NCBI RefSeq assembly: GCF_019059575.1
Contig: NW_024881729.1
Span: 416,406 to 480,405, forward strand
Length of the DNA stretch: 64,000 nucleotides
Direction of reading: 5' to 3'
From: Amphibalanus amphitrite
Lineage: Eukaryota
Shown: positions 8,701-63,925 of the stretch, piece after piece
Position numbering within the stretch: the stretch's first letter is position 1
Layout: every line of letters starts with the position of its first letter
Program-made: the position numbers and the translations under genes
The notes under the pieces: generated by a model
The model's input: the letters and a program-made list of their open reading frames with translations, nothing else
Told to the model about the DNA's origin: nothing
The model's database searches: none

Positions 8701-10011
8701 TATGCGGCACGTCTGGGAAATGGCCGTGCCGTACCGGCCGCTCCGTTCCGCGTTATTGACTCGTTGGCCACCTGAGCGATGGCACCTGACCGCCGTGTCT
8801 TGTGACCTGTCCCTCGTGAGGCGGACACTACCGCCGTGGTGGACCCAGCTCGTGCAGACTACCTCACGACGTTTCACCGCAGTCCAGTCTCTGAGCAGAC
8901 CGTAAGCAGTCAGTCAGCAGTCTGTTAGCAGTCCATAAGCAGTCCGTGTGCAATGCCGCCAGCGGTGCCGCGTGCCGGCCGCGTCCGCCGTGCGAAACTC
9001 GAGCCCATCCTGCACTCAAAACTTTTTTACTACCTCCTGGAGAGTTCATTTTCATCAAACCCGCAAGATAATAGTATATTGAAAGGGTAACTCGCTGCTA
9101 CCATTATGTGCATAGTAACGGTACGTGGTTAATATGAACTTATTCGCCAGCGAAGAGTATTATTACCATGTAAATATCAATATTACTCTCGCGATCCAGA
9201 ACATCACGAAAACTCTTTCCTCCTGGGTATCGTGACTCGGATACAGATAGTCGTTTCATGCGTGGATCTTTTTTACTCTCGTGAAGATGATATTTGAAAT
9301 GGAAACAATCAGCCAATCAGAAACGAGATCGGCCGTTTGCGGTTTGAAGGCCGCGCGCATCTGTCAGTTTTCGGCCGTTGGTCTCCGAGAGCGGATGTGA
9401 GCAGTGTCGGTGCCGCGCGGCGTGGCCTTTGGTGATTGTGCTTGTGTGTTGTTCATCGCCTATAGAGCCTCTGTGGACATTTTATTGTAAGTACCGATGT
9501 GCTAGAGCATTGCGTGCCGTTGAGTGGTGCTAATTTGACCTGGTTAACAGGACCCCGTGCACGGCCACGTGGCCTAGTGTTGTGAGTACGTACATTAATT
9601 TTGTTGGGATGCTACAAGTTTATGCATTTTGTTGGTGACTTTGAAAAAGCCTTGCACTGTAGTGATCCAGTCTCATTATCTCACGCAGACGGGCGACCAC
9701 CCAGGAACGCCGTCGCTCACTTCAAATATTGTGCGCTCTGCGTAATCTAATATGAGGGCGCTGAATGTCTTGTATTCATATTCAAATTGCATTCAAGTTG
9801 TATCGTGGTGTTTATTTACCGCTTGTGCATTGCTGAACGCTTTGTATAAATTTGGATGAATAAGTGAAGAGTCTCACAATGTTCATGGTTGGTGTGCCCC
9901 TCGTATTGTTTGTACGGAAGCCAAATATACCTACATTGTTGCTCTTGAAACATTTTTTTTTAGTTGGTGAGCTCCGGTTAACAGAAGCTTCGTGAAGCTT
10001 CTGAAGGAAGC

Positions 10012-10405
10012 GTCTGTGGGTCTGTTACCATCCTCTGGGGGGTTTACACTAAAGGAAAGAGTAAACATTACCATGTGACAAAGGGTAGGCCATAAGAATA
10101 TACTCTCTGTAGGAGGGTAAAGCACAGGGTAGATGATGCGTTACTCCCTAAAAAAGGGTTCCGTTAAAGATTTACCCTTTCAAAGAGTGTAACCCAAAAA
10201 ATGTCACACTCTAGACAAGAGTAAATCAAAAGAGTTTACCATTCAGAAGATGGTAAAAAACGTCTGTGTGTCATGTTACCCCTCCCTGGCGAGTTTACTC
10301 TTCATGAAAGAGTAAAATTTACCATCTGGAAGGTGGTAAAAAACGTCTGTGTGTCAAGCTACCATGCTATGGCGGGTTTACCCTTCAGGAAATGGTAAAA
10401 AAGTT
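10012..10405. repeat. degenerate tandem array (minisatellite) of roughly 80-bp units. Each unit carries gtctgtgtgtca, tttacc, gagtaaa and ggtaaaaaa motifs.
   Basis: Two clean adjacent units at 10265-10345 and 10346-10405, with diverged copies upstream. It lies inside an AT-rich island (about 9060-10430) within the otherwise GC-rich intron. Confidence 0.6.
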
Positions 10406-47502: not shown

Positions 47503-48323
47503 GGATTCCATCGGGAAACAGGTACTATGCCGGTGGAGCATGTGGTATATTACAAACAAGCTACCACATTTTGTGCGATAACTTTGAAATGAAGCGGAAG
47601 GCACGTTTCTTCCGTCGAGAGACAAAGCAATGGTCACATGTCTCGGATTTTGTAGGATTTAAGTGCCCGCCTCGGTGAGGAAGGGGCATCATAAGAGGAC
47701 GATCACATTCATCATAAGGAAGATCACATTTCAGTACATGCAGGTCACAAAAGCACAACACAAATAAACCGCGCACGTGAGACCATGTCATCAAAATTTG
47801 GTTAATAAAGCTGGTTAACATATCACAGAATACATACGGCCTGTATCAAGTCACAGATTGCCATACGAATTCAGCCGCTATATACTTTGCGTCATTGGAT
47901 TGTTTGAAACAATTTCGCCCAAAATGCTACCTTTTTGCGCACAAATGACGAATTCAAATAGCGAATAACGAATTCAAGACCAAGCAAGCACAGCACAACA
48001 TACGCGAATGGTGCTATAGCACAAATATGCTGAAAAGCGCGATTGAAGCTCTATTCGACAGAGCACAAATGTTGAACTAACACCACGCGAAAACAGCTAC
48101 TGTACAATTTAGAAAACAAAGCATGCATATATAATATATCACAGATAGCATGTAACTGTACCGTTCACAAACACTCAGCATCACATGCTGACATCCCTTC
48201 AAACAGAACAACGCAACCGCACCCCACATCCACTCTATACATCACACAGAAGAGTGTAGTACTTGGCGTATTTGTAAGTGTAGTTGTACTCTCACCAGGG
48301 ACATCGCCCCACGCCTCGACTAA

Positions 48324-49205
48324 TCATTTGACGATGGACACCTTCCCGTCGCGGACCCAGCGGCTGATCACATCACCCTCATGTCTGTCCTCAGTGACGA
48401 CGGAGGCTATAGGGCGGGGGCGGGGACGGGGGCGGCGGCTGGGCGGCGGGCGGCGCACGGGAGACTCCAGCAGCCGGTTTAAGAACGCGTCCATGGCCGT
48501 GCCGCCGCCTGAGGCAGCGGTGATCCGGGGCCGTTTGGGGGTACTGGGTCCGCTCGAGGAGACCCCGGTCTCTGGTGAGCGTGGGCCGCTCTCCGAGGTC
48601 GGAGGGGGTACAGGGTGTTCGGCGCTCTCTTCTACCTCCACCACCGGGGGCGGGGTGGCCAGTCGCGGCGGTGTGGCCAGGACGACCGAGTCATCGCTGT
48701 CGGCAGCCGCCATGGTCGGAGGTGTTCGACCACCCAGGTCTTCTGCCGCCGGCGCAGCAGCATCCTCGCCACTCCGATCCCCTGCCACCGTCCCTGTCAG
48801 TCCTCCTGCCTCCTCCCAGTCCGTACTAGTAGCCTGATCCACCACTGTGGGTCGATGCCGACGAGTCCTTCGCTGGCCTGACCCCTGCCTCCGACAGCTT
48901 GAGCCCTGTCTCCCTCCCGACTCTTCTCTCCTCCTTCCCGAATCCTGTCTCCTCCGGCTAGACTCCTGTCTCCGCCGACCACCCCTAGTCCTACCTGATC
49001 CGGCCGGTGACCCGTCGCTACCCCGCGGTACTGGGCTGGCCTCTCCAGTAAGGACGGAGGGCAGCCGGCGGCCGCTACGGCCCCCAGTCGGCCGGACTGC
49101 CGGGCCGGACCCCGGGGTCAGGTCGGAAGGACGGGGCAGGCCACCGGGAGGTACCAGCGGGGGCCGCCGGGGCGCCCGCTGGGCCCCGCGACCGCTCCCG
49201 CCCCG
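48324..49205 (-). CDS. ERCC6L2: ERCC6L2-like terminal coding exon: long low-complexity Arg/Ser/Gly/Pro-rich C-terminal region ending …DVISRWVRDGKVSIVK*, stop at 48324-48326
   Basis: Minus-strand ttgttttcag acceptor at 49206-49207. The frame stays open for 882 nt to the stop. Phase-0 start matches the phase-0 end of the upstream exon. Assignment to ERCC6L2 rests on splice-phase continuity, not homology. Confidence 0.5.
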   Translation of the reverse strand, partial: RGGSGRGAQRAPRRPPLVPPGGLPRPSDLTPGSGPAVRPTGGRSGRRLPSVLTGEASPVPRGSDGSPAGSGRTRGGRRRQESSRRRQDSGRRREESGGRQGSSCRRQGSGQRRTRRHRPTVVDQATSTDWEEAGGLTGTVAGDRSGEDAAAPAAEDLGGRTPPTMAAADSDDSVVLATPPRLATPPPVVEVEESAEHPVPPPTSESGPRSPETGVSSSGPSTPKRPRITAASGGGTAMDAFLNRLLESPVRRPPPSRRPRPRPRPIASVVTEDRHEGDVISRWVRDGKVSIVK

Positions 49206-49446
49206 CTGAAAACAAACGGAGACAAAACCGTGTAAATGGAGTCCAGAGAGAATGCCTAGCCATTTAGTCGATATTCATGATCATCCGTCATTATATTATC
49301 CACAACCAGCAATGCCTAACTCATGAGATAAGCTTAAGTTTTTGGTGAAAATACTTGACTGACCCGTCACATCAATGGAAATGCTGCCCTCCACCTATTC
49401 CATCCTTTCCTCTGCCTGAAACACGCACGCCGCACATTTCTCTCAC

Positions 49447-49601
49447 CTGGGGCGGCAGCGGGGCGCACCTCTCGGCCGGCTCCTGGGTGCCCGCGTGCAG
49501 CTGATACACGGCACGGGTCGCCTGGCGCGCCACGTGCTCCTCTAACCGGCTGGCGGCCACGAGCGGGGCGTTACCGTGCACGTGGCGCACGCCGCAGTCC
49601 C
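49447..49601 (-). CDS. ERCC6L2: ERCC6L2-like exon (-GDCGVRHVHGNAPLVAASRLEEHVARQATRAVYQLHAGTQEPAERCAPLPPQ)
   Basis: Pyrimidine-rich acceptor (…ccttccctctgctccag) and GTGAGA donor. Phases are consistent with the neighbouring exons. Confidence 0.5.
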
Positions 49602-49865
49602 CTGGAGCAGAGGGAAGGGACGGTCAGAACCCAGAGAGAAGGTCAGGTGTCACTTATTAACTAAGCTCACGTGATCTGAAATGAACTGGTCTCATTCTTG
49701 AACTCACTCTGTTGTAATGAACTGACATTTTAAAACGGACTGTTTTAGCGCGCAATTCTTAAAATGAAGGCGATACATCTCTTTCCTAAATACGAACTGA
49801 AGCAATAAATGGCAATCAGCAAAACATCAACTAGAATCAAATGAGAAATTGTAAAATTGACTTAC

Positions 49866-50093
49866 TGAGCGCCACGTCGATGGAGGCCGTGACCTTTGCC
49901 CCGCCCACGGCGGCCTCTCGATGGCCGCCGGGCGGAGTTTGGTCCACCTCGTCGTCAGATGGCAGCAGCTCCGCGCCCTCCGGTGATGGCGCCTCCCTGC
50001 CGCCAGCGGGCGCCACCGCCGTGTAGTCGCTCACGGTGAGGCCGGCCACACCCTCCCGGACTTCGGGGAGAGCTCCGCTCACCTCGTGACCGG
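49866..50093 (-). CDS. ERCC6L2: ERCC6L2-like exon (…AGHEVSGALPEVREGVAGLTVSDYTAVAPAGGREAPSPEGAELLPSDDEVDQTPPGGHREAAVGGAKVTASIDVAL-)
   Basis: ccttccccaccag acceptor and GTAAGT donor. Phase 1 in and out links the flanking exons. Confidence 0.5.
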
Positions 50094-50469
50094 CTGGTGG
50101 GGAAGGAAAGGGTTTTGGTGAGTGTGGTGATACGATGGAGGGAAACGTAACCAGATGGCAATATGACGAGAGAATAATCACGAAACTGACTTCCAGTCTT
50201 CCAGTCCACCAGTCCCTTCGTCAGGTGTCCGTCAATCGACCAATCAGTCAGCTACCTATCAGTCTCCCAATCAGCCAGTCACAAAGCCTCAGTAGGTCAG
50301 CAGTCCCTTACGTCATAGCAGGCCTAATGTTCATCAGTCAATCCCTCTGTCCATCAGTCCCTCGCTAGCCAGCCGTCAGGAGCCTCTCCAGCCCTCCTGT
50401 GTGACTTCAGCAGTCCTTCCGTTTGTCCCTCCCTTCCTCATTCCCCCAGTCCCACCCTCAGTCCCTCAC

Positions 50470-50668
50470 CAGCGGCAGTAAGGAGCCTCTCCATCCTCCT
50501 ATGCGAGTCCAGCAGCCCCTCGGTCAGCCTGCCGTCCACCCGCAGCTGCAGCAGGTTGTGCAGCCCAAACAGCTCCCCCTGCAGGCCCGGCCGGCCGGCG
50601 GAGGCGGAGAACAGACGCGGCCCGGTGCCGCCCTCCACGGCGAGGGTGGAGAGCTGCTGCTTGTACAC
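50470..50668 (-). CDS. ERCC6L2: ERCC6L2-like exon (VYKQQLSTLAVEGGTGPRLFSASAGRPGLQGELFGLHNLLQLRVDGRLTEGLLDSHRRMERLLTAA-)
   Basis: Matches human [42 protein letters not shown]. ccaacag acceptor, GTGAGG donor. Confidence 0.75.
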
Positions 50669-50951
50669 CTGTTGGATTGATGGGAGGGAAAGGACAGTCA
50701 GTGAAGAGCATAGGTGGCTTTAACTGCGAAGAACAGTAGGCGTACGACCTCACACGTAAGTGGTAAATACAACCATAATTTGATCTGATCATTTGACGTA
50801 ATATGAAAACGAAGGGTGGCACCAATGTCTTTTTTGTAAGAAAAACCCTACATAAACCCGGGAGATAAAATGAAGTGATCGGTAAGTAGAAGAGTATGAA
50901 TATGCATTGAATATACTCAGAATGATCGTTCCAGCTCCACTATCTACTGAC

Positions 50952-51039
50952 CTGTCTGAGGTAGATGTTCTCCTCGATCGTACCGGCCGTGACGAGTCGA
51001 AACACACTCACATCCTTAGTCTGTCCCAGTCGGTACGCC
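50952..51039 (-). CDS. ERCC6L2: ERCC6L2-like exon ([29 protein letters not shown]), helicase C-terminal domain motif VI region
   Basis: Matches human [29 protein letters not shown]. ttacag acceptor, GTCAGT donor. Confidence 0.85.
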
Positions 51040-51191
51040 CTGTAAGTAAACAGCACATAAAAAATAAATACACCTGGTCGAGGGATGGAAGGGCTATGAA
51101 AAGGAACTGGCAGGACGCGTCACCTAGCAGCGACTTTTCCGTGATTACCATAAAAAGTGAAGCGAGTGATGCATCTTATCCAGCCTCTCAC

Positions 51192-51395
51192 CTGTCCTGC
51201 GCCTGCAGGTCGTGCGCCGGGTTCCAGCTGGGGTCCACCACCACCACCGCCGTGGCGCCAACAATGTTCAGCCCCTGACCGCCAGCCCGGGTCGACACTA
51301 GCGCCACCGCCCACTGCGGCCGGCGGCAGAACTGCTCGCACAGCGCCGGCCGCTCAGAGGCAGGCGTCTCGCCGTCAATGTAGGTCAGGTCAAAC
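51192..51395 (-). CDS. ERCC6L2: ERCC6L2-like exon (QFDLTYIDGETPASERPALCEQFCRRPQWAVALVSTRAGGQGLNIVGATAVVVVDPSWNPAHDLQAQD-), helicase C domain
   Basis: Matches human [69 protein letters not shown]. cctctccag acceptor, GTGAGA donor. Confidence 0.9.
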
Positions 51396-51745
51396 CTGGA
51401 GAGGTGCGGGTTAGGTCAACCGGGCACAGTATTAGTCAGGAGAATGTGATGGTGACCTGATGAAACCGAAAAATAGTGGTAGGTCCTGATAACTTTTGAG
51501 GAGACATATCAATTGCAATAAATGAGCTCTGCTTATTTGCCTTTGCAGCTAGGTAATTGCTAGGTAATTGCTAATTGCAGCTAGCCTCACCTCGTAGCCA
51601 TTTCGTTCATGCATCATGACTCAAATGTATTATAGAACTAAAAAATAGAATAGTTATACAAGCCGCAGGAGTGGATAAGCCAACAACCAGTTCCATAGCG
51701 CGACGAAAAACTCAAAAAGTGGAAGAAGAGCCAGGAAATACTCAC

Positions 51746-51855
51746 TGTTGATTTAATACGTAGGCTCGTATTATCTTGAGCATTCTAGTGGAATACGAGA
51801 ATATCAGCACCTTCTGAGATTTCTGACGGAAGTGCTCAATTAAGGTGGTCAGCAC
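51746..51855 (-). CDS. ERCC6L2: ERCC6L2-like exon (VLTTLIEHFRQKSQKVLIFSYSTRMLKIIRAYVLNQ-)
   Basis: Matches human [32 protein letters not shown]. tttacag acceptor, GTGAGT donor. Confidence 0.85.
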
Positions 51856-52080
51856 CTGTAAATGAAAGCAGGGTGTGATCACACAGTCTTCATTATCATA
51901 TTGCCAATGTAAAATATCGCAAAATGAATGCTCCTTTGAGCATTCGGCAAACACTCAAATCATGGATATATGAGCAGAGTACATGTCGGTTGATAAGAAG
52001 GATAATCAGCGAGACAGAAGATCTCGTCATCAACCATTTACTCCCAAATATCCGACGACCCTAATGTTCCATTTCATTAC

Positions 52081-52182
52081 CTTCATTTTGCCGCAGTATT
52101 TCGGATCGGAGAGCGCACGATACGCCTGTGATCGACTAAGGCGAGCCAGTTCGGGAAACTGGTCAAACACTGACTGGCAGAC
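52081..52182 (-). CDS. ERCC6L2: ERCC6L2-like exon (VCQSVFDQFPELARLSRSQAYRALSDPKYCGKMK)
   Basis: Matches human [34 protein letters not shown]. ttgtttcag acceptor, GTAATG donor. Confidence 0.85.
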
Positions 52183-52385
52183 CTGAAACAAGCCGACAGT
52201 AGGGCAACGTTAACAGAAGACATATTTCAGACATAAACAACAAACAGAAAATATTAGATGCTACAATTCAGAGTACATATAGTTCCTGCTTCTAGCCTAG
52301 CGTGCCCCGGCATCCCTCTTCCGAGCCGTCCAACTAATTTGATGCAGACAGATGCAATTAACTCAAAAATCGTCCCTAACTTTTC

Positions 52386-52628
52386 CCACCTGTCGTGCCA
52401 CCTTGTTCTGTTTTACGGAGGCGCCCCAATAGACACACAAATATGTCTCCGAATATCCTTACCTGACGAGCCATCCTGTTCTGCTGAGCGGAGGCGCTCC
52501 CGCTGGGCAGCAGCAGACACGGGTGGTTAGTGGTTGACTACTACTGTCCCGTTCCCCGTCTTACCTGCCGTGCCATCCTGTTCTGCTGAGCGGAGGCGCT
52601 CCCGCTGGGCAGCAGCAGACACGGGTGG
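52386..52628. repeat. roughly 100-bp tandem repeat (about 2.5 units). Each unit contains the last 56 nt of the ERCC6L2-like exon at 52565-52693 plus its 5-prime splice donor (minus-strand caggtaag).
   Basis: The string atcctgttctgctgagcggaggcgctcccgctgggcagcagcagacacgggtggtt occurs at 52475-52530 and 52573-52628, each preceded by cttacctg. A diverged third copy lies at 52386-52458. Confidence 0.8.
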
Positions 52629-52693
52629 TTGCTAACCTTCATCAGCAGGCTCATGTAGGAGAGCGCTACTCCGGCCGCCGGGCCGGACTCGTG
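52565..52693 (-). CDS. ERCC6L2: ERCC6L2-like exon (HESGPAAGVALSYMSLLMKVSNHPCLLLPSGSASAQQNRMARQ)
   Basis: Matches human [41 protein letters not shown]. ttatttcag acceptor, GTAAG donor. Confidence 0.8.
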
Positions 52694-52960
52694 CTGAAAT
52701 AACACGACAACGCATAACTAAGGAGAATAGCATTTTATCAATTGACAATAGTAACTACATGCGTTACACACATGCCTTCCGCATGGCAACAGTAAAAATG
52801 TAACAACGTTTTCCAGTACCGAGCAACATGACATATAAAGCACTCACAGAGCGAGATAAGACCTAAGCACTTCCCTATATTATCATCATCAAACCGCACA
52901 GTTTAAGTGTGCGAAATAGATACCAGTGATAAGTAGACTGTCTCACGCCAGCCACCTTAC

Positions 52961-53101
52961 CTTGAGGCAGCAGCGCGCCGCCCTCCTTCCGCTGCCGCAG
53001 TCACAGGGCCGGGAGCGGCGGACCAGCAGACGCACATCGGGCCGGTCCAGGACGGCGCTGTACACCTGACGCTGCAGCGGCGACGGCGGGCAGTACACTA
53101 T
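52961..53101 (-). CDS. ERCC6L2: ERCC6L2-like exon (IVYCPPSPLQRQVYSAVLDRPDVRLLVRRSRPCDCGSGRRAARCCLK)
   Basis: Matches human [47 protein letters not shown]. tgtcctcag acceptor, GTAAGG donor. Confidence 0.85.
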
Positions 53102-53330
53102 CTGAGGACAGAGGACACAACATTCAGACACAACAGTACTACAGACAGGGGGACGGCGCTGTACACCTGACGCTGCAGCGGCGACGGCGGGCAGTACACT
53201 ATCTGAGGACAGACAGGACACAATGTTCAGACACAACAGTACATCAGCTGCAGACAGGGGGACGGCGCTGTAGACTTGTCGCTGCAGCGAAGACGGCGGA
53301 CAGTACACTATCTGAGGGAACACAGGACAG
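53051..53330. repeat. roughly 101-109-bp tandem repeat, about 2.7 units. Each unit contains the 3-prime splice acceptor (minus-strand cctcag) plus the first roughly 50 nt of the ERCC6L2-like exon at 52961-53101.
   Basis: Units begin ggacggcgctgtacacctgacgctgcagcggcgacggcgggcagtacactatctgaggacag at 53051, 53151 and 53260. Confidence 0.85.
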
Positions 53331-53619
53331 CTCATCTAAAGACATAATATATGGCACACCACAGAACACGCCGCCGTATCTGAGGGCACCGGTAAACTTT
53401 TATAAATTGGAGGCACACTATGTTATTAGCTGGGGCCTGGGGGCGTTTAGGTACGGTGCCTAATTTTGGGATGGAGCAAGACACGAACTATCTGGGAACA
53501 GAAAACACTCTTTGGGGTCATAGTGCATTTCTGGAAAAAAAATCCCAGTCCTCTCGCCTCTCCGTCCCTCCCTCTCCAAGCCAGGTAGGTACATGTCGCT
53601 ACGCCCCACACTGACGTAC

Positions 53620-53773
53620 CTGATCGGTCTTGTTGGGCAGTTGGTCGGCAATGAGCGCCTTGGTTCGCCGCAGCACCCAGCGCTGCCGCATTGTGGCCAG
53701 CAGCTCCCGGCACCGCCAGGACTCGGCCACGTCCCGCTTCACGGCGCCGCGCCGGCGACCGCGCTCTATGGGC
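53620..53773 (-). CDS. ERCC6L2: ERCC6L2-like exon (-PIERGRRRGAVKRDVAESWRCRELLATMRQRWVLRRTKALIADQLPNKTDQ)
   Basis: Matches human [51 protein letters not shown]. tacccag acceptor, GTACGT donor. Confidence 0.85.
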
Positions 53774-54087
53774 CTGGGTACGGGAGGGAAGGTCAGCTCA
53801 CTATTGCAGCTGTAGGGACGGACGCATGGATTCCTGTAGAGAAGAGCAATTACACCAGTATGCTGCTAGATAAAATACCGGAATAATCGGTCCACTTCGT
53901 CGTGATTAACTGACGCACAGCTTGGCTAGGCTAAAACACAAGTGTAAATAACAAGACGCCGAAATAATATCAAACACCAACAATGAACAAGGTTTCCATG
54001 TTCGACCAGAACTAAACAAAAACTGAGAGGGCTAGCCAAAGAAATGGTGCAGCAAATAGCGATGAGACGGCCACGTTGTTGCCTCAC

Positions 54088-54176
54088 CTAACAAAGTCGT
54101 TGACGAACTGCTCACAGGTGCCGAGACACCCGGGGTTGGCCCAGTCCAACAGACACCAGAACTCGCGCAAATCGTT
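54088..54176 (-). CDS. ERCC6L2: ERCC6L2-like exon (NDLREFWCLLDWANPGCLGTCEQFVNDFV-)
   Basis: Matches human [30 protein letters not shown] (helicase motif III region). tctttcag acceptor, GTGAGG donor. Confidence 0.85.
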
Positions 54177-54365
54177 CTGAAAGAGCAGACATGTCGTCAT
54201 TCATCCAGCAGTTTAAATTTGGAGTCATTTACATAGCTTCTCAGTACTGAGAAAGTTGTAAAAGATAACGCAATAACAATGCTTAACACACTAAAACAAA
54301 GCTCCCTCGTACATTTTCTGCTTGCGCGCAACACAACCGACGTCAGAATCCCGTCCCGCACGCAC

Positions 54366-54585
54366 CTGCACCACCGTCCCGGAGAGGCCGATGCGTCGCC
54401 GGCAGTCCAGGCCGCCCAGCGCCTGTGTCACCAATGACGTCACTGATTTCAGCCGGTGCGCCTCGTCCACGATGACGGCCGACCAATCGGGGCCGTTCAG
54501 CGCGGTCACGTGGTCCCGGGCGGCCTCAAACGAGCTGAGAACTACGTCCAGGGTCCGGTTCCGAGACGCCCTCAGCACTTCGGGC
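54366..54585 (-). CDS. ERCC6L2: ERCC6L2-like exon ([74 protein letters not shown]): helicase motif II (DEAH box) and motif III
   Basis: Matches human …[45 protein letters not shown]. ccccaag acceptor, GTGCGT donor. Confidence 0.9.
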
Positions 54586-54696
54586 CTTGGGGACAATTTG
54601 AGAAAGCGTCAGAGCCTTCATGGCAGCAACAAAGGAGGCGAATCGGCACCTCCGACTGGTAAATCAAAGCAATTCGTTTTCTGAAACAGGATTGAT

Positions 54697-54950
54697 TGGT
54701 TGAATGAATGAATGAATGAATGAATGAATGAATGAATGAATGAATGAATGAATGAATGAATGAATGAATGACAGAAAGAATGCAAAAATGAATGAATGAA
54801 TGAATGAATGAATGAATGAATGAATAAATGAATAAATGAATGAATGAATGAATGAATGAATGAATGAATGAATGAATGAATGAAAGAATGCAAGAATGAA
54901 TGAGTGAATGAATGAGTGAATGAATGAATGAATGAGCATTTGAATGAAAG
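54697..54950. repeat. (TGAA)n/(GAAT)n tetranucleotide microsatellite, about 250 bp, in an ERCC6L2-like intron
   Basis: Direct reading. Confidence 0.95.
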
Positions 54951-55164
54951 AGCGAATCCGCAAACGTACGAATTTATAATACGACATTCATACGACAAAG
55001 GATAATTATCAAATTAAAACGCATAAAGGAACGAAAAACGAGCGAATGACGGTGAAAAAAAAATAAAACGGAAACAAACGATCGAACGAATGAACAAGCA
55101 ACAAACGAACGGACGAGTGAGCAACCACGTTTGTTCCAAGCTCCGGTTAGTCCCGCTCGCTCAC

Positions 55165-55354
55165 CTCCGGTCCCTGACAAACAGACCGACATCGAACGTC
55201 CCCCATGTGTTGAGCTCCGACAGCCAGTTGTACAGTACAGCGGCGGGACATATGACGAGGACGGGAGGTGGACGGGGAGGCAGCAGTGGCGGGGCCACAT
55301 CGAGCGTCTCCAGACTGCGGAGGAACGGCGGCGTGCTCCGGCCGTCCGAGCGGT
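55165..55354 (-). CDS. ERCC6L2: ERCC6L2-like exon (-DRSDGRSTPPFLRSLETLDVAPPLLPPRPPPVLVICPAAVLYNWLSELNTWGTFDVGLFVRDR-): helicase motif Ia
   Basis: Matches human …[31 protein letters not shown]. ctcccccag acceptor, GTGAGC donor. Confidence 0.9.
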
Positions 55355-55666
55355 CTGGGGGAGACAGCAGGGACAAAATCAAAGTCATGAGTCATGGGCT
55401 TCATTTTGCATGAAACATGGGTATCAAAAATATAATTGGGTGTGTTATCCAAGCATCTAAGGCATCAAAACACCTTATACAGTATACACTCATATCTGTG
55501 GGAAGGAAAAACGATATGCATATTTGAGTTGACTATGAATTGAGCTTGAAGTTTTAAATAAAAAATGTCAGGGTTTTTACATGGTTTTCTAGTTTTGAAT
55601 CAAGTGCCTACTGCCTACCATCTATCAACACATCATATCAGAGTTCATTGGGATTGTCCAACAAAC

Positions 55667-55832
55667 CTGATTTGTGCAGGATGGCTGCTATGAATGCAAT
55701 GGACTGAATGGTCTTCCCAAGGCCCATGTCATCAGCCAGAATGGCACCAGCATTGTCTCTGTACCTGCTGTACAGAAACTGAACCCCCTCCCGCTGGTAG
55801 GGGCGCAGATGCTTGTTGATTGAACCTGGCAC
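55667..55832 (-). CDS. ERCC6L2: ERCC6L2-like exon ([55 protein letters not shown]-): SNF2 N-terminal Q-motif and Walker A (motif I)
   Basis: Matches human [56 protein letters not shown]. tcatttttag acceptor, GTTTGT donor. Confidence 0.9.
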
Positions 55833-56044
55833 CTAAAAATGAAAAGACATGAAGATGATGTTAGAAAGCTCATTTACCAAAAATGTCAGTCACAACGTTA
55901 TTTTTTTCTTTTTTTAATCAAGCAAATTCTTCTTAACAACAGTTGATATTCAATACAACACATGCACATGATTGCAGGTAGATACTTAAATAATCAACAT
56001 CAACATGTTTCCTCATTGGTAAAATAATCACAAAAGAAGATTAA

Positions 56045-56672
56045 CTACTATGAACGTCAAACCCCTTGAGACCCCACTTTTTTGCGATAATTTTTAAATG
56101 CGTCAACTTTCGTTGACAATATTCTGGCAATGTATGTTTCAGAACCTGCCGAAACTTTTGTTACTAAGGTATTTTGACGCCAAACGATTATGGAAGGTAC
56201 TTCTCATTCACTCGTAATGTTAAGGTCAATTCAGGCCCGGGCAGAGGCTTGCGCTCGGCCACACTCGAGCCCCGCCACCAGCGCCATCTGCTCTAAATGC
56301 CATCTACCAGCGCCCGCTACCGCTACCAGCTACCGCCCACCATCAAGCCTGAATGGAGCGAGAGACGCGAGTGACCGGTCGCCGGGCAAGGAGCGCCGGA
56401 GGGGTAGGGCGGAGCTTAGCGCTGACGTCATTACATGGCTCCGCCCCATGAGCGCGTAGCCTCTACCCAAACAGCAGATTCGTTCCGTGAAATTTAACAT
56501 TACGAGTGAATGAGAAGTACCTTTAATAATCGTTTGGCGTCAAAATACCTTAGTAATAAAAGTTTCGACAGGTTCTGAAACACACATTGCCAGAATATTG
56601 TCAACGAGAGTTGACGCATTTAAAAATTATCGCAAAAAAGTGGGGTCTCAAGGGGTTTGACATCCATAGTAG
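56045..56672. mobile_element. non-autonomous DNA transposon (MITE-like). About 178-bp terminal inverted repeats (about 95% identical) flank a roughly 255-bp GC-rich core.
   Basis: The left arm 56045-56222 is the reverse complement of the right arm 56479-56672, read directly. No ORF. Located in an ERCC6L2-like intron. Target-site duplication not resolved. Confidence 0.7.
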
Positions 56673-56748
56673 GTAATTATACTGCCTGAAATGTTCTGCT
56701 TAATAATTTTATTGTTATGGTTACATTTTATCTGTTTGTTTTCCCTAC

Positions 56749-56846
56749 CTGAATAATATGACCATCCTCACTGCCTAGGACCAGACATTCTGAGTCAGTG
56801 CTTTCTTGTTCTGTGGAGACGCTCATGATGTCCACAGTTCGAGATT
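56749..56846 (-). CDS. ERCC6L2: ERCC6L2-like upstream exon (…SRTVDIMSVSTEQESTDSECLVLGSEDGHIIQ). Contains a candidate initiator ATG at 56826-56824, but it also has a good 3-prime splice acceptor, so more 5-prime exons may exist.
   Basis: GTAGGG donor with a phase-0 junction to the next exon gives …[23 protein letters not shown], compared with human …[21 protein letters not shown]. The frame is open upstream of the ATG to the tgtttccag acceptor. Confidence 0.5.
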
Positions 56847-57243
56847 CTGGAAACATACACACATCAGCATCAGCATGGGACCATTATGAAAAACTGGGGA
56901 GGCACTAGAACATGTTGAAAATGTCAAATGATAGCAGAAAATGTCTATTCCCAATTGCTAATTGGGAATTTGAATTGGGATGAATCGCACATTCAAGTTC
57001 AAGTTTCAATCACCAAGCCCTAATAGGTAATCTCTGTCTAGGGACTCAGGATCCTAATCTTGATGACACCCTTGTGTGACAATGAATATGCTTAAAATAG
57101 GCTACTCAGGGCACCTTAAAAACCTCAATGGTACCTGTAGACTGTAAATAATTAATTTAAATAATAGTAGACTGTAATAATTGTAGACTGTAAATGTTCT
57201 TAACCAGTACTTTTCCAGCGTTTTCTCTGTCGAAGACTCCACT

Positions 57244-58722
57244 ATGCCTCCATTCCATGCGAGGTACTCTGGTCCCGAACTCGAGCCTGTAAGTATCACC
57301 CCAGAGGCAGTCATCAACAAGCTTCAGGGTCTCAAGCCCGCCAGCTCCCCGGGCCCCGACGGCATCCACCCACGAATCCTCTCTGAGACTGCCGAGTCTA
57401 TTGCCCCTTCTCTGGCACGGCTGTTCAACATGTCCTTAGCGTCAGGTGAGGTTCCATCCGAATGGAAGCTGGGCGAAGTTGTCCCGATATACAAGAAGGG
57501 GAACAAACAGCTGCCGACAAATTACAGGCCCGTCAGTTTGACTGCTGTTCCATGCAAAATACTGGAGTCCATCATTCGGGACCTCATTATGAACCATATG
57601 GTCTCTACTGGCCAGCTCCACAACGCTCAGCATGGTTTCCGTCCAAAAAGATCGTGCGCAACTCAGCTGCTAGCTACTCTAGAGGACTGGAGCAGGGCGA
57701 TCGAGAGGGGCGAGACAGTGGACGCTATCTATTTGGACTTTTCTAAGGCATTCGACACTGTGCCCCACCAGAGACTCCTCCACAAACTCAGGGCATATGG
57801 GATCGGTGGACACCTGCTCAGATGGATAACAAGTTTCCTGTGCTATAGAAAACAACGAGTTGTCCTGAACGGTTCATCTTCTGACTGGGCCACAGTCAGT
57901 AGCGGCGTTCCTCAGGGCTCGGTCCTGGGACCCCTTCTGTTCGTCCTATTCGTCAACGATCTTCCAGGCCTTATGCAAGGCGGGATACAGATGTTCGCGG
58001 ACGACACGAAGATTTACCGTCCTGTTCAGAACCCCTCTGATGCGGCTCTGCTCCAGGCGGACATCTCCACGGCTGTCGACTGGTCCAGCAAGTGGTGCCT
58101 CAGTTTCAACTCCCAAAAGTGCAAGGTTATCCACGTTGGAAAGCGCATTCCATATGAGTCATATGTCATTGGAGACTACCAGCTTGCTGAGGTTGAAGTT
58201 GAGCGTGATCTAGGCGTCCAAATCGATCAGGACCTCAAGTTTCGTGAACAAGCCGCTGCAGCGGTATCCAGAGCCTCCCAGATGCTCGCGGTGATTCACA
58301 AGTCCTTCGAACGCATCGACGCCACCACGCTACCGCTTCTGTATAAGACCCTGGTACGACCGCACCTCGAGTACTGCAACATCGTATGGGGCCCCTTCAA
58401 TCGCGCTGACCAGCAAAAGGTGGAGCGTGTCCAGAGACGAGCAACGAAGATGATCCCATCACTGAGGAGCCTACCATATGACCAACGACTACGCTCGCTG
58501 AAACTCCCGTCTCTCTATTATCGAAGGCGCCGCGGCGACATGATTATGACGTACCAACTTTTTCATGGGGGTGTTGACCTCGATCCTGAGTCATTCTTTG
58601 AGTTGGCTGACTCTACTACAAGAGGACACCCCTGGAAGCTGTTGAAGCCGAGAGCGTCTTCCCGATCGAGGCGAAATGCGTACAGCGTCCGGGTCGTCAA
58701 TGACTGGAATGGGCCTTGGTAA
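57244..58722 (+). CDS. LINE reverse-transcriptase ORF fragment (492 aa)
   Basis: See above. Confidence 0.8.
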   Translation: MPPFHARYSGPELEPVSITPEAVINKLQGLKPASSPGPDGIHPRILSETAESIAPSLARLFNMSLASGEVPSEWKLGEVVPIYKKGNKQLPTNYRPVSLTAVPCKILESIIRDLIMNHMVSTGQLHNAQHGFRPKRSCATQLLATLEDWSRAIERGETVDAIYLDFSKAFDTVPHQRLLHKLRAYGIGGHLLRWITSFLCYRKQRVVLNGSSSDWATVSSGVPQGSVLGPLLFVLFVNDLPGLMQGGIQMFADDTKIYRPVQNPSDAALLQADISTAVDWSSKWCLSFNSQKCKVIHVGKRIPYESYVIGDYQLAEVEVERDLGVQIDQDLKFREQAAAAVSRASQMLAVIHKSFERIDATTLPLLYKTLVRPHLEYCNIVWGPFNRADQQKVERVQRRATKMIPSLRSLPYDQRLRSLKLPSLYYRRRRGDMIMTYQLFHGGVDLDPESFFELADSTTRGHPWKLLKPRASSRSRRNAYSVRVVNDWNGPW

Positions 58723-59172
58723 CAACTGGATTTCCATTACGTCATGGGTGATGATGTCACACCACGGGTGACGTTTCACTGCTGCTGCTGCTGTCCACGG
58801 AGGGCAGCGTTTGTGAGTGGAAAACAGTAGCAACATTGTAAATGAAGGCAGTATTGGCGCTTATGCTACATATGAAATTTATAACAACATATTGATATTG
58901 GTGAATGTTTATTTTTGTTACTTTTCATAAACCCTCCATTTGGGCCTTGGTAACAACTGGATTTCCATTACGTCATGGGTGATGATGTCACACCACGGGT
59001 GACGTTTCACTGCTGCTGCTGCTGTCCACGGAGGGCAGCGTTTGTGAGTGGAAAACAGTAGCAACATTGTAAATGAAGGCAGTATTGGCGCTTATGCTAC
59101 ATATGAAATTTATAACAACATAAAAAAAATTGATATTAGTGAATGTTTATTTTTGTTACTTTTCATAAACCC
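57244..59172 (+). mobile_element. 5-prime-truncated CR1/L2-like LINE copy (reverse-transcriptase ORF 57244-58722). Its 3-prime UTR consists of two roughly 230-bp tandem units (58714-58943, 58944-59172).
   Basis: Reverse-transcriptase motifs (FRPKRSCATQL, YLDFSKAFDTVPH, FADDTKIY) and the characteristic CR1-type C-terminus (…YYRRRRGDMIMTYQLFHGGVDLDPESFFELADSTTRGHPWKLLKPRASSRSRRNAYSVRVVNDWN). The 230-bp duplication was read directly. Confidence 0.8.
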
Positions 59173-59784
59173 TCCATTTCAGGGTCTGCATGCAAAATTT
59201 CTGTTATTTTAGAGTCAAGCTATTGTACTAAGGGATTTATTTTGGCAATTTAGTCATTTGTTAGGTTATAAGGCTGCAGAAACTTTCAGTTGAGGTTGGT
59301 ATCCACTATCCAGTTGCAGCTATAATTAATTGTGTCATATTTTGTATCATTTTCTGAACATGTAAACACCTACCTATATGAATTCAAATTTTGTGATTGT
59401 AGAAAAGCAGTTACCCTCACATTGCAGCGGGGATTAGAACAATTAACCACACTTGTTATACAAAAAGCCTGTTTGCCATCAATTTTGGGAATCCAAATTG
59501 GGTATTGGTCAGGTAGATGTAGCACAAGCTGCCCGATGCACGAGAATGGGTCTTTCTAACCAAACCTTACCTAACCTGACCTACAACCTACAGCCTTAAA
59601 CCTAAAATTTACAACCTACGACCTAGTCCTACGGTATGGCATATCACAACAGCTTGTGCTACGTCTGCTACCATGACCCAACTTTGTGCCAATTCATACC
59701 AACTTGGGATGACAGTCACTGCAGATGTGTGCTGACCATGCAGGTCTTTGTTACAATTGCAATTCTATTGTGTTACAGGTTCGG

Positions 59785-60845
59785 CGTTCTACAGCTGCGA
59801 CCCGCCATGGCTGGGCCACCGCGGCGGCATCACCTTCAGGGTGGACCTGCCCGTGGCCACCCGCCGGTCGGACCCGCCTGCAGTCCGCAGGGAAGCTGCC
59901 CTGCGAGCCATTGCAGAGCTCCCGCACCCGGACGTCACTATCTGGTCGGACGGCTCGGCTCGCGGCGGACGGAACAGGGCGGCGCAGGCGCTGATCCAGT
60001 TCCACCACCTCAACAGAGAAGAGACCGTGCGCGCTCCTGCAGGGGCGGTCTGCTCCAGCCTAAGAGCAGAACTGACCGCCATGCGCGAGGCGTTCGCGGC
60101 TGTGGCCGGCCTGGAGGACGGGGAGTTGGCATCGACCAAGTCGGTCCGCCTCCTCACCGACTCAAGGTCTGGGCTCCAACTACTCGGCCGCGGCCCAGCT
60201 AACCAGACCATGGCCCTGGCCGCCGAGGTGTGGAGGCTGCTGAGTGCTGAGCACCCTCGCCGAGAACGGCACCGAGACGGTGCTCCAGTGGGTGCCAGGC
60301 CATGCCGGGCTGGACGGCAACGAAACCGCCGACCGCCTGGCTGGCGAGGCCACGGCGGGCGACCAAGACAGCGCACCGATCGACCTGTCGAGTGCGCGAG
60401 CCGCCGTCACGCGCCATGTCCGGGAGCTGTCGCGACAGAGGGCAACCGCTGCCCACCCGCACCCGGACCCCACGCCTGGCCACGACTCCCTGGCGCGCTG
60501 GGGTCGGTGACGCTGTCCCAGCTGAGGACCGGCACATCACCGCTGACCCGTGACACGCTCCACAAGATTGGCCCGGAAGCCGACGACGAATGCCCCGCGT
60601 GCGGGGAGCCCGACAGCGCGGCGCACCTACTGACCGATTGTCCGGCCTATGAGGCGGCCCGCCGCCGCCGCTCGGGTGCCGACCCTCGCCTGGTCGACGT
60701 CCTCGGCGGCCCGGCGACGAAGGTCGTCACCTTCATCGAGGATGTTGGGCGGACCGAGCCGCCGCTCGACCCGCCTGCGCCGCCGCCCCCCTGAGCGGGT
60801 TGGCGATGGGATGCAGAAGAAGAAGAAGAAGCAACTGCCAGCGCG
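59785..60845 (+). mobile_element. 5-prime-truncated LINE fragment (RNase H plus C-terminal zinc-finger region, with two frameshifts) from a family related to the intact element at 29645-33972. Ends in a (GAA)n tail.
   Basis: …DVTIWSDGSA…TDSRSGLQLL…VPGHAGLDGNETAD…CPACGEPDSAAHLLTDCP, compared with the intact element's RNase H and zinc finger. The tail is agaagaagaagaagaag. Confidence 0.8.
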
Positions 60846-62864
60846 CCACGGCGGCGAAGCCGAGTTCCGCCGCTGGACCGCCCGCGCAATGGCCAGCACA
60901 GACAAGAAACAACCGAATCACAACACCTACAATTACGTTATTGTTATGGTATTGACATTGTTACAATTAACCCTGCTCTTTCGAGCGTGGATGCACGCTA
61001 AAATTGTCGCATAATTCCATGCAGCTTCCACCCTTCTGCAATACAAAGTTTGAATACAAAGTAGTCTTACAATAGGTTTAGAACTTATGTGCAGATTGTC
61101 GATGCTGGTTGACTTGATGATTGGAATTGTGTTTATCTGTTTTATCTGTTTTGACTTAAATATATGGCCATGGACTATGGCCTACCTTGGGAAGTGTCTA
61201 TGATTTCAACAAAACATTTTTCATCAGGATACGCTGCAGGGTACATAGTACATACGTAGTGAAAATTTTGGGCATGTATGGGTGCGCATGTGGAGATGTA
61301 GACTGCGAATGAGACGGACTACGACGGTTTTTGAACCAATTAAATCTGATTGACAACATAATGTAGGACTAAAAACTGACTGTCAGAAGAATATTCACAG
61401 AATATTCACTTCACCCGGTACAACGAAAAGGGAAAGTCAGGGAACAGGGGCAGGGTACATCTCGAAGATCAATCAAATTGCAGGTGCCGATTGGTTATGG
61501 ATCATCGTAGCTCAATGTACTGCCTTGTGCTGCTTTATTGATTGAAATTGCATCCAGCTTGTATTGAAAGAAGTCATTATGGAAGATTTTAAAAAGGTTT
61601 TTGAATAATTTAAATACTTTGAATTTATATTTCTGCAGAATTATATACCCGTATCATTCTTTTAATGTCAATATTTGTATATTTTCTAGCATTTAAGGAA
61701 ATAGTGGCCTCAAGTTTTTAGAAAATATCTGATTTTGCTCTCTGGGCCACTGCAGATCCCTAAAAAGTTAGGAGCCGTCTTCATTATTTAATGTATAAAA
61801 CCAAATAAATTATCACTGCTCAAAAGTGGAAGAAATGACAAATGAAAAAAAGTTTTCCTACAGCGTTGCAATCCAGATTTCAAGATAGTGATGGGCGCAC
61901 TAGAAAGCAAGTAAAAGTACTCCACAAGGTAAAAGTAAGGAACAAGAATATCCTTATACTGTTTCAGAATTCGGTAACAAACATTTTTTGTGTGTTTTAA
62001 ATACCCGGACAAATCGATTCCAGAATCAGTCTTGATGATATTATATGGTTTTTGTATGGTGTTGGTGGTACTCGAATGACCAAAGTCAGTACATGTCCAT
62101 CACCTTTCGATATTTCCGTGGTGCTCGCTCCCATTTCATAGCTGCTCACGGTGTTTTGTGCTGACGTCATATGGTGCTGCTCCACTAGCGCCACCATACG
62201 GCGTCAGCTGGCGAATTATCCAGTTAATACCAGAGCCCCTCCATTTCAGAGGGTCTGCATGCAAAATTTCTGTTATTTTTTAGAGTCAAGCTATTGTACT
62301 AAGGGATTTATTTTGGCAATTTAGTCATTTGTTAGGTTATAAGGCTGCAGAAACTTTTAGTTGAGGTTGGTATCCATTATCCAGTTGCAGCTATAATCGT
62401 GTCATATTTTGTATCATTTTCTGAACATGTAAACACCTACCTATATGAATTCAAATTTTGTGATTGTAGAAAAGCAGTTACCCTCACATTGCAGCGGGGA
62501 TTAGAACAATTAACCACACTTGTTATACAAAAAGCCTGTTTGCCATCAATTTTGGGAATCCAAATTGGGTATTGGTAAGGTAGATGTAGCACAAGCTGCC
62601 CGATGCACGAGAATGGGTCTTTCTAACCAAACCTTACCTAACCTGACCTACAACCTACAGCCTTAAACCTAAAATTTACAACCTACGACCTAGTCCTACG
62701 GTATGGCATATCACAACAGCTTGTGCTACGTCTGCTAGTGCTACCATGACCCAACTTTGTGCCAATTCATACCAACTTGGGATGACAGTCACTGCAGATG
62801 ACAGATGTGTGCTGACCATGCAGGTCTTTGTTACAATTGCAATTCTATTGTGTTACAGGTTCGG

Positions 62865-63925
62865 CGTTCTACAGCTGCGACCCGCCATGGCTGGGCCACC
62901 GCAGCGGCATCACCTTCAGGGTGGACCTGCCCGTGGCCACCCGCCGGTCGGACCCGCCTGCAGTCCGCAGGGAAGCTGCCCTGCGAGCCATTGCAGAGCT
63001 CCCGCACCCGGACGTCACTATCTGGTCGGACGGCTCGGCTCGCGGCGGACGGAACAGGGCGGCGCAGGCGCTGATCCAGTTCCACCACCTCAACAGAGAA
63101 GAGACCGTGCGCGCTCCTGCAGGGGCGGTCTGCTCCAGCCTAAGAGCAGAACTGACCGCCATGCGCGAGGCGTTCGCGGCTGTGGCCGGCCTGGAGGACG
63201 GGGAGTTGGCATCGACCAAGTCGGTCCGCCTCCTCACCGACTCAAGGTCTGGGCTCCAACTACTTGGCCGCGGCCCAGCTAACCAGACCATGGCCCTGGC
63301 CGCCGAGGTGTGGAGGCTGCTGAGTGCTGAGCACCCTCACCGAGAACGGCACCGAGACGGTGCTCCAGTGGGTGCCAGGCCATGCCGGGCTGGACGGCAA
63401 CGAAACCGCCGACCTCCTGGCTGGCGAGGCCACGGCGGGCGACCAAGACAGCGCACCGATCGACCTGTCGAGTGCGCGGGCCGCCGTCACGCGCCATGTC
63501 CGGGAGCTGTCGCGACAGAGGGCAACCGCTGCCCACCCGCACCCGGACCCCACGCCTGGCCACGACTCCCTGGCGCGCTGGGGTCGGTGACGCTGTCCCA
63601 GCTGAGGACCGGCACATCACCGCTGACCCGTGACACGCTCCACAAGATTGGCCCGGAAGCCGACGACGAATGCCCCGCGTGCGGGGAGCCCGACCGCGCG
63701 GCGCACCTACTGACCGATTGTCCGGCCTATGAGGCGGCCCGCCGCCGCCGCTGGGGTGTCGACCCTCGCCTGGTCGACGTCCTCGGCGGCCCGGCGACGA
63801 AGGTCGTCACCTTCATCGAGGATGTTGGGCGGACCGAGCCGCCGCTCGACCCGCCTGCGCCGCCGCCCCCCTGAGCGGGTTGGCAATGGGATGCAGAAGA
63901 AGAAGAAGAAGCAACTGCCAGCGCG
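62865..63925 (+). mobile_element. second copy of the same 5-prime-truncated LINE fragment, carrying the same two frameshifts (part of the 3.08-kb tandem duplication)
   Basis: Near-identical to 59785-60845, with a few substitutions. Confidence 0.8.

Follow-up and report, generated by a model that had tools for sequence, protein, structure and literature searches.

The window analysed here, a 64,000-nt stretch of the Amphibalanus amphitrite assembly GCF_019059575.1 (contig NW_024881729.1, positions 416,406 to 480,405), carries on its minus strand the gene for the DNA-repair helicase ERCC6L2, in which the acceptor of exon 7 and the donors of exons 8 and 13 are each repeated in tandem together with adjoining exon and intron sequence. 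These arrays (A, B and C, respectively) are structurally genuine and form a trio of "mirages", a type of minisatellite described in amphioxus. We consider it probable that they are short, unstable and lineage-specific tandem duplications whose unit happens to span an exon-intron boundary, and that the extra splice sites are for the most part silent or rarely used and have no function of their own. Several observations carry this assignment. The units of arrays A, B and C lie head to tail and hold exon and intron sequence of a single boundary; the functional junction lies in the unit at one end of each array, which runs on into its exon, and the remaining units are intronic; the AG or GT is kept at all extra sites of arrays A and B in both haplotypes of the gene; and arrays A and C differ in structure between these haplotypes. 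An earlier sequence-only reading of the window had proposed that the two exon boundaries are repeated with their splice signals, and this holds for the acceptor (three copies) as well as for the exon 8 donor (three copies, the third degenerate).

Gene model and structure of the arrays

Spliced mapping revealed that the minus strand of the window encodes exactly XP_043230461.1 (848 aa, annotated as ERCC6L2), which carries the allele-specific residues of the window. The protein contains the Pfam domains SNF2-rel_dom (1.6e-61) and Helicase_C (4.7e-19), and a protein search with the concatenated exon translations returned ERCC6L2 of Pollicipes pollicipes (73% identity), three ERCC6L2 proteins of A. 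amphitrite and then metazoan ERCC6L2; the domain pair and the best matches, which are annotated orthologues, identify the gene as ERCC6L2. The exact mapping bears out both this identity and the two exons as they had been proposed from the sequence. Between 52200 and 53500 the minus strand shows two GC-rich exons, AT-richer introns between them and canonical splice signals:

52961-53101, minus strand: coding exon 7 of ERCC6L2 (IVYCPPSPLQ...RCCLK), 141 nt, phase 0/0, placed by spliced mapping of XP_043230461.1 and by tblastn with orthologues
52565-52693, minus strand: coding exon 8 of ERCC6L2 (HESGPAAG...NRMARQ), 129 nt, phase 0/0, placed by spliced mapping

The true acceptor of exon 7 (...tgtcctcag/ATAGTG, the slash marking the splice junction here and below) has a position that is conserved in a balanid contig (ENA ERZ25070917) and in Pollicipes, and the true donor of exon 8 (CAG/GTAAGA) follows position 52565. 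Three A. amphitrite ERCC6L2 proteins are annotated, two from RefSeq loci and one from the GenBank annotation of another assembly. All three read ...LPNKTDQ/IVYCPPSPLQ...CCLK/HESGP...NRMARQ/VCQSVF, which corresponds to use of the exon-contiguous sites, and none of them bears an isoform label.

Array A, at the acceptor of exon 7, is composed of the first 53 nt of that exon, which form the exon part of the terminal, functional unit, and of the following segments:

53102-53149, minus strand: proximal unit of array A, intron-derived part; 48 nt with the polypyrimidine tract and AG of the functional acceptor
53150-53258, minus strand: middle unit of array A; 109 nt, with an exon-like part at 53150-53202, the AG of a pseudo-acceptor at 53203-53204 and an intron-like stretch of 56 nt
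53259-53329, minus strand: distal unit of array A; an exon-like part of 53 nt (53259-53311) and a pseudo-acceptor AG at 53312-53313

Tandem Repeats Finder (TRF) places array A at 53050-53329 with a period of 109, 2.7 copies, 89% matches and a score of 415, and a direct-repeat search found three 82-nt copies at 53038, 53139 and 53248. Each unit joins 48-56 nt of the intron 3' end, closing with cctcag/, to 53 nt from the start of the exon (ATAGTGTACTG...GCCGTCC). The first exon-like bases of the three acceptors are 53101 (true), 53202 and 53311, with unit spacings of 101 and 109 nt; the extra acceptors thus exist as predicted, about 10 nt away from the positions 53212 and 53322 at which they had been placed. 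In the middle unit 52 of the 53 exon-like nucleotides agree with the true exon, in the distal unit the identity is 87%, and the distal pseudo-acceptor adjoins unduplicated upstream intron. A 27-nt motif spanning the acceptor (TCCTCAG/ATAGTGTACTGYCCGCCGTC) is found exactly three times in the 64-kb window, each time within array A, with no occurrence expected from 100 shuffles. Altogether, about 228 of the 518 nt of intron 6 are derived from array A.

Array B, at the donor of exon 8, was missed by TRF and emerged from the direct-repeat search as two 71-nt copies, 97% identical and 102 nt apart, followed by a third, diverged copy:

52560-52630, minus strand: unit 1 of array B; the last 66 nt of exon 8 and GTAAG, with the true donor
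52458-52528, minus strand: unit 2 of array B; 71 nt, with the pseudo-donor CAG/GTAAGG after 52463 (GT at 52461-52462)
52386-52436 (aligned copy 52388-52427), minus strand: unit 3 of array B; about 79% identity and a 14-nt deletion, with CAG/GTGGGA after 52390 (GT at 52388-52389)

Its unit comprises 66 nt of the exon end and only 5 nt (GTAAG) of the intron, after which comes a non-repeated spacer of 31 nt. The spacer between the true donor and unit 2 (52529-52559) ends in AACCACT beside the unit start AACCAC, a microhomology. Unit 3 is an older, degenerate copy, and a 40-nt donor-spanning motif occurs in the window only at the first two sites of array B (0 expected). Sequence derived from array B accounts for about 175 of the 382 nt of intron 8.

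The third array lies further downstream in the gene:

50351-50515, minus strand: array C, a duplication of the exon 13 donor (exon 50470-50668); 46 nt of exon and 15 nt of intron (50455-50515) are repeated at 50351-50413

Self-comparison of the window gave 79% identity between the two copies of array C at a spacing of 104 nt. The GT of the extra copy is destroyed in the window haplotype and intact in a second A. amphitrite assembly, GCA_009805615.1.

Array instability in a second gene copy

The ERCC6L2 copy in GCA_009805615.1 differs from that of the window at 90 of 1920 aligned coding nucleotides, with introns that are 64-89% identical. It represents an allelic haplotype or else a paralogue of recent origin, both forms being annotated in RefSeq, and is referred to here as the other haplotype. 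Its array B has three units with the same unit-specific flanks as in the window. Its array A has four acceptors versus three in the window and consists of one long distal unit (the same distal unit as in the window, here with a TAG), two 43-nt units and the true exon. The 43-nt units contain 8 nt of exon each, stand in place of the middle unit (TRF period 43, 3.1 copies) and match what would remain of a 101-nt unit if the 58 nt between two (A)GTACTG microhomologies were taken out. The spacing of array C is about 76 nt versus 104 nt in the window. Arrays A and C thus differ in structure between the haplotypes, and array B has an equal number of units in both. Since an independent assembly contains the arrays and has array A in altered form, the arrays are real, young and structurally unstable.

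This bears directly on the idea that the repeats are an assembly artefact, namely a false duplication created by collapsed or expanded haplotypes or by read errors, which we find hardly credible. The two diverged gene copies on separate contigs of the A. amphitrite assembly do indicate imperfect haplotype handling, but the array copies differ by 2-13% instead of being identical, the three-unit array B and an array A with a matching distal unit recur in GCA_009805615.1, and analogous arrays occur in three further species.

Compared with the functional exon copies, unit 2 of array B shows 1-2 differences in 71 positions (97-99% identity, small numbers), and the two that set it apart from the exon of the window itself reflect synonymous changes in the latter. 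Between the haplotypes unit 2 shows 4 differences in 71 positions (94% identity) versus 64-89% identity for nearby unique intron. That the pseudo-copies are closer to the functional exon than intron divergence predicts suggests, as far as such small numbers go, homogenisation or gene conversion.

We propose that replication slippage, template switching at microhomologies or unequal exchange produced the arrays, and that their turnover may be continuing. A duplication spanning a junction would leave the terminal unit contiguous with the exon and the mRNA normal, the other units just lengthening the intron, whereas an equivalent duplication wholly within an exon would disrupt the protein and be purged. 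Nearly all transcripts made with the extra sites would contain premature stops and be directed to nonsense-mediated decay (NMD). The arrays would then be a side effect of frequent tandem duplication at the locus, in a genome that is hyper-polymorphic and whose introns are short, and would persist because the exon-contiguous unit still yields a normal mRNA. A local mechanism had been suggested before, either slippage or duplication mediated by a retroelement. The first part stands, as slippage or unequal exchange fits the head-to-tail units, the microhomologies at their boundaries and the differences between haplotypes. The second does not: an origin by a retroelement or by retroposition was rejected on the grounds that the units are strictly tandem and contain intron sequence, that their motifs occur in the window only in the arrays, that self-BLAST of the window found no dispersed copies, and that the retroelements of the window lie elsewhere.

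Another repeat distinguishes the two haplotypes. Intron 4 of the GCA_009805615.1 copy contains a 2.8-kb minisatellite of 39-nt units (7703-10529) that is absent from the window haplotype (equivalent intron 54366-54176), and exon 5 is shortened in the annotation of that haplotype.

Strength and coding outcome of the extra sites

Splice sites were scored with position weight matrices for which barnacle ERCC6L2 loci supplied 43 donors and as many acceptors. In the window, the extra donors of array B reach 12.1 and 10.3 bits versus 11.7 bits for the true donor, and the extra acceptors of array A 9.7 and 10.6 bits versus 12.1 bits for the true acceptor. The extra sites of the two arrays fall between the 72nd and 98th percentiles of real sites (up to the 100th in the other haplotype); they lie above the 99th percentile of intronic GT decoys (6.9 bits) and at or above that of AG decoys (9.7 bits). 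Judged by these scores, the extra splice sites are sequence-competent.

Their coding outcome is less favourable. Use of the middle acceptor (53202) would add 101 nt and run into a stop at the next junction, an instance of the frame shifts that had been foreseen for some of the sites. Donor 52463 would add 102 nt and lead to a stop after 6 new residues (the 7th codon past the exon end), and donor 52390 would likewise lead to a stop after 6 new residues. Only the distal acceptor (53311) gives an extension, of 210 nt (+70 aa), that is in frame and open in the window haplotype, and the distal unit of the other haplotype has a TAG in its exon-like part. Over the two haplotypes 8 of 9 alternative usages end in a premature stop, including 5 of 5 in the second haplotype, and no coding potential of the extensions is conserved between them.

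A functional role for the extra sites would take the form of alternative isoforms, such as that with 70 additional residues from the distal acceptor, or of regulated unproductive splicing, in which NMD transcripts tune the expression of ERCC6L2. We regard this as improbable. It would account for the strength of the pseudo-sites, which among real sites rank from the 72nd to the 100th percentile and greatly outscore intronic decoys, for the open, in-frame extension from 53311 in the window haplotype and for the preservation of the pseudo-copies, which is unusually good relative to the flanking intron. However, neither A. amphitrite gene copy has annotated isoforms, the other haplotype has the TAG in the open extension and 43-nt units for the middle unit, the arrays are absent in two other barnacles, the insertion would fall within the SNF2 ATPase lobe, and pseudo-sites of this kind are silent in the described precedents. 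The sequence-only reading had called the extra sites strong candidates for alternative splicing; with three annotated proteins that are exon-contiguous, premature stops in 8 of 9 usages, a TAG in the other haplotype for the lone open one and silent precedents, this description goes too far. By analogy with those precedents, the extra signals are most likely silent or yield NMD substrates.

Junction arrays in other barnacles and in control species

The exon 7 acceptor and exon 8 donor junctions are single-copy in the balanid contig, where intron 6 has only 178 nt, and in Pollicipes. The comparison with related species that had been recommended along with the sequence-only reading therefore shows the duplications at these junctions to be specific to the A. 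amphitrite lineage. Other junctions of the gene are affected in the same two barnacles. In the balanid contig the exon 11 donor is triplicated (...AQDR/GTGAGA, period 47, 2.9 copies, 96%). Pollicipes has an array at the exon 12 donor (9 copies of CGGCAG/GTGAGG, period 42), another at the exon 13 donor (9.2 copies of GCCACG/GTACGG, period 80), which is the same junction as in array C of the window, and one at an acceptor (3.1 copies of TTTCCAG/GCGGG, period 75). The Pollicipes RefSeq model (11014-15112 of the retrieved locus) reads through both donor arrays with micro-exons inside them and omits the conserved VYKQQL... segment of exon 13; the arrays have probably led the annotation astray. The exon 8 donor of Pollicipes is of the GC type (CGCCAG/GCGAGG).

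The orthologues of Lottia, Eurytemora and Branchiostoma belcheri were used as non-barnacle controls. ERCC6L2 of Lottia has intronic arrays and no junction-spanning array at any of its 26 junctions, and that of Eurytemora has one doubtful case. The B. belcheri locus has a donor in 5 copies (19-nt units, 976-1074) as well as a duplicated acceptor (74 nt, 95%) and a duplicated donor (about 115 nt, 87%) in the regions 3024-3222 and 3304-3573. An ungapped 24-mer scan allowing up to 5 mismatches was too strict for such searches, missing arrays B and C with their short or indel-bearing intron parts, and BLAST, TRF and inspection were used instead.

In this compact gene, with junctions about every 250 bp, a random non-exonic unit of 100 nt spans a junction with a probability of about 0.39, and three junction-spanning arrays out of three in the window alone would be met with a probability of 0.39^3, or about 0.06. 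Given this chance, the third junction duplication in the same gene and the further cases in the balanid, Pollicipes and amphioxus, two affected junctions in neighbouring exons are not the unusual finding that the sequence-only reading took them for.

Weighing the alternatives

Several points tell against the reading of the arrays as neutral mirages. That the extra sites are silent is deduced from annotation and from the precedents in other species, and low-level or NMD-masked use of these sites is compatible with the protein models. Splicing at the proximal acceptor and splicing at the middle acceptor with removal of one 101-nt unit give the same mRNA and are indistinguishable from the protein models. 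The functional acceptor is the most downstream of three equally strong sites, a choice that no scanning rule predicts outright, and the classic duplication experiments, as they are discussed in PMC1557585, disagree over which copy wins. A hairpin signal that would favour slippage was not found when single-stranded DNA folds of the three units were compared with shuffled sequences (z = -0.28, -1.0 and +1.29). Lastly, of the 16 arrays with periods of 22 nt or more in four ERCC6L2 sequences from barnacles, 7 cross a junction versus 2.3 expected if placement outside exons is random (Poisson-binomial P of about 0.002, in a post hoc test of one gene with subjectively delimited events); this excess, if real, may require more than a purely random-mutation account. 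Two further searches were negative: the region 48000-57500 has no Rfam matches that would indicate a noncoding RNA in the arrays, and a metagenome scan for further alleles with the acceptor motif gave 0 matches.

The equivalence of the two splicing routes in array A opens the way to another interpretation, according to which intron gain or sliding is under way through a Rogers-type tandem duplication or along the lines of the mirage model of Ebner et al. The exon-like part of the middle unit would become a mini-exon, and a new 101-nt intron would arise from the duplicated AG/GT (CGTCAG/GTGTAC). In silico spliced mapping showed that the acceptor at 53202, the following 36 nt and an intron of exactly one unit from GT (53166) to AG (53066) reproduce the annotated protein; the window's two array A copies are identical over these informative 36 nt. 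The duplicated exon part does contain AGGT, and such a model has been proposed both for amphioxus mirages and for novel introns of Drosophila. Nevertheless, the simpler use of the proximal acceptor leads to the identical mRNA, the putative new acceptor (gcagcgtcag/) is without a pyrimidine tract, and the full middle unit is missing from the other haplotype, and we consider an intron gain in progress very improbable.

The excess of junction-spanning arrays raises the question whether mutation itself is directed to boundaries, with duplications arising preferentially at junctions, for example at GC-rich exon ends or through breakage coupled to transcription or splicing, instead of at random positions with selection sorting them afterwards. 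This would supplement the mirage interpretation, and we think it unlikely. Apart from the 7 of 16 arrays, it draws on the exon 13 donor, which has been struck in both A. amphitrite and Pollicipes, and on the amphioxus literature, in which the recurrent coincidence of repeats with boundaries has been noted and its mechanism called unclear. Yet the test for an excess was post hoc and confined to one gene, depended on subjective event limits and ignored array expansion; the window alone gives about 0.06, the arrays of Lottia are intronic with none at its 26 junctions, and the units are without a structural signal.

A bolder combination would be that barnacles, like amphioxus, have a genuine excess of boundary-seeded minisatellites and that array A is an intron-gain intermediate whose duplicated AG/GT could excise exactly one unit. 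We hold this combination to be unlikely. If true, it would imply a boundary-associated duplication mechanism, or a strong filter of mutation plus selection in hyper-polymorphic genomes with very large populations, and such arrays would be a standing source of intron lengthening, of intron sliding and gain, and of new splice sites.

On the neutral mirage interpretation the arrays, taken by themselves, are of little consequence, being a probably neutral variation in the structure of two introns in the gene of a DNA-repair helicase. Their use beyond that is modest. With different junctions of the same gene affected in three barnacle species, it would be worth testing across whole genomes whether such arrays are enriched at boundaries; tandem acceptors and donors of like strength offer natural test cases for the rules of splice-site choice outside mammals; and junction arrays mislead gene prediction, as in the Pollicipes model, which calls for caution in the annotation of barnacle-like genomes.

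Other features of the gene and the window

In the region 48327-49205 (minus strand), the XP_043230461.1 model excises an in-frame "intron" of 588 nt (48407-48994) from one continuous open reading frame (ORF), and the equivalent region is a single 891-nt exon in the model of the other haplotype. This segment is either an exitron or an annotation artefact, and it accounts for the size gap between the RefSeq proteins XP_043230461.1 (848 aa) and XP_043246429.1 (1048 aa). Intron 3 contains a (TTCA)n microsatellite at 54701-54935 (TGAA on the plus strand, about 59 units), whose place in this intron is common to both A. amphitrite haplotypes (6527-6650 in the GCA_009805615.1 locus) and the balanid contig (7385-7537).

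The rest of the window is GC-rich with long interspersed nuclear elements (LINEs), and no other gene was readily recognisable in it. The LINE-type retroelements, none of which is connected with the arrays, are as follows:

29902-33942, plus strand: LINE-type retroelement
17349-19055, minus strand: LINE-type retroelement
57244-58722, plus strand: LINE-type retroelement
59748-60794 and 62828-63874, plus strand: LINE-type retroelements

Among them are one element with an intact 1347-aa ORF that has endonuclease, reverse transcriptase (RT) and RNase H domains, two RT fragments and a pair of nearly identical 3' parts that lie about 3.08 kb from each other. A 231-bp unit present twice at 58710-59179 (96% identity) starts at the end of the RT ORF 57244-58722 and may be a 3' tandem repeat of that LINE. 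Further direct repeats lie outside recognised genes: an 83-nt unit occurs twice at 10008-10400 (81%) and once more 250 nt away, and at 19329-19595 two perfect copies of 37 nt stand 230 nt apart beside an RT fragment.

Comparison with known systems

Tandem duplications are known to give rise to introns. Novel introns formed in this way are documented in Drosophila (PMC2891723), and a potato RdRp gene is reported as a case of intron creation or extension by internal tandem duplication (PMC4974935). Introns of the Rogers model share with the barnacle arrays a tandem DNA duplication that includes splice signals or AGGT, which the exon part of array A has, and an mRNA that stays unchanged with the extra copy being spliced out. 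The barnacle case is different in that an existing junction has been duplicated and an existing intron lengthened, with no demonstrably new intron. Mutually exclusive exons likewise stem from local tandem duplication of splice signals within a gene, but tandem exon duplication was rejected for the arrays, whose units hold a single boundary and never a whole exon with both sites, and thus cannot act as cassette exons.

A closer parallel to array B is found in intron 7 of human F7, which contains a variable number of 37-bp tandem repeats. The first repeat spans the exon 7 donor, and the 5-9 identical pseudo-donors are functional but silent, the most upstream donor being the one chosen (PMC1557585). 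Array B has the same layout of an authentic donor followed by tandem pseudo-donors of equal or better strength, since the true donor at 52565 lies upstream of 52463 and 52390, which have comparable scores; if the F7 rule of the most upstream donor applies, 52565 would be expected to be used, as annotated. The two systems differ in their units, 5-9 identical and mostly intronic units of 37 bp in F7 versus three units (102 and 73 nt) of mostly exon sequence in array B. Moreover, the F7 work was on donors in mammalian cells; neither the triplicated acceptor of array A nor barnacle splicing is directly addressed by it.

The mirages of amphioxus are the closest counterpart. Duplicated splice sites of this type have been described in the globin genes BflGb6 and BflGb9 (PMC3087553), in TnC and PGBD5 (PMC3902484) and, as cited in PMC3087553, in Adh3 (Canestro et al. 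2002). These mirages have units of 10-160 bp, a copy number that varies between haplotypes, concerted evolution and AG or GT that is often kept; splicing was undisturbed in reverse transcription PCR (RT-PCR), their mechanism was called unclear, and a model of intron gain was built on them (PMC3087553; PMC3902484). A full-text literature search found no description of mirages outside amphioxus, and the present arrays extend a phenomenon so far described for cephalochordates to an arthropod. Besides the host, the barnacle arrays differ in being short, with 2-4 units, and in that normal splicing is indicated by annotation instead of RT-PCR. The two agree in other respects: the unit spans a 5' or 3' boundary and, at 43-109 bp in the barnacle, lies within the amphioxus range, several arrays occur in one gene, many units keep AG or GT, and copy number or structure varies between haplotypes; the closeness of some barnacle pseudo-copies to the functional exon, seen in small numbers, may also point to concerted evolution. 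The likeness extends to the gene itself, as junction arrays are also present in the amphioxus orthologue of ERCC6L2.

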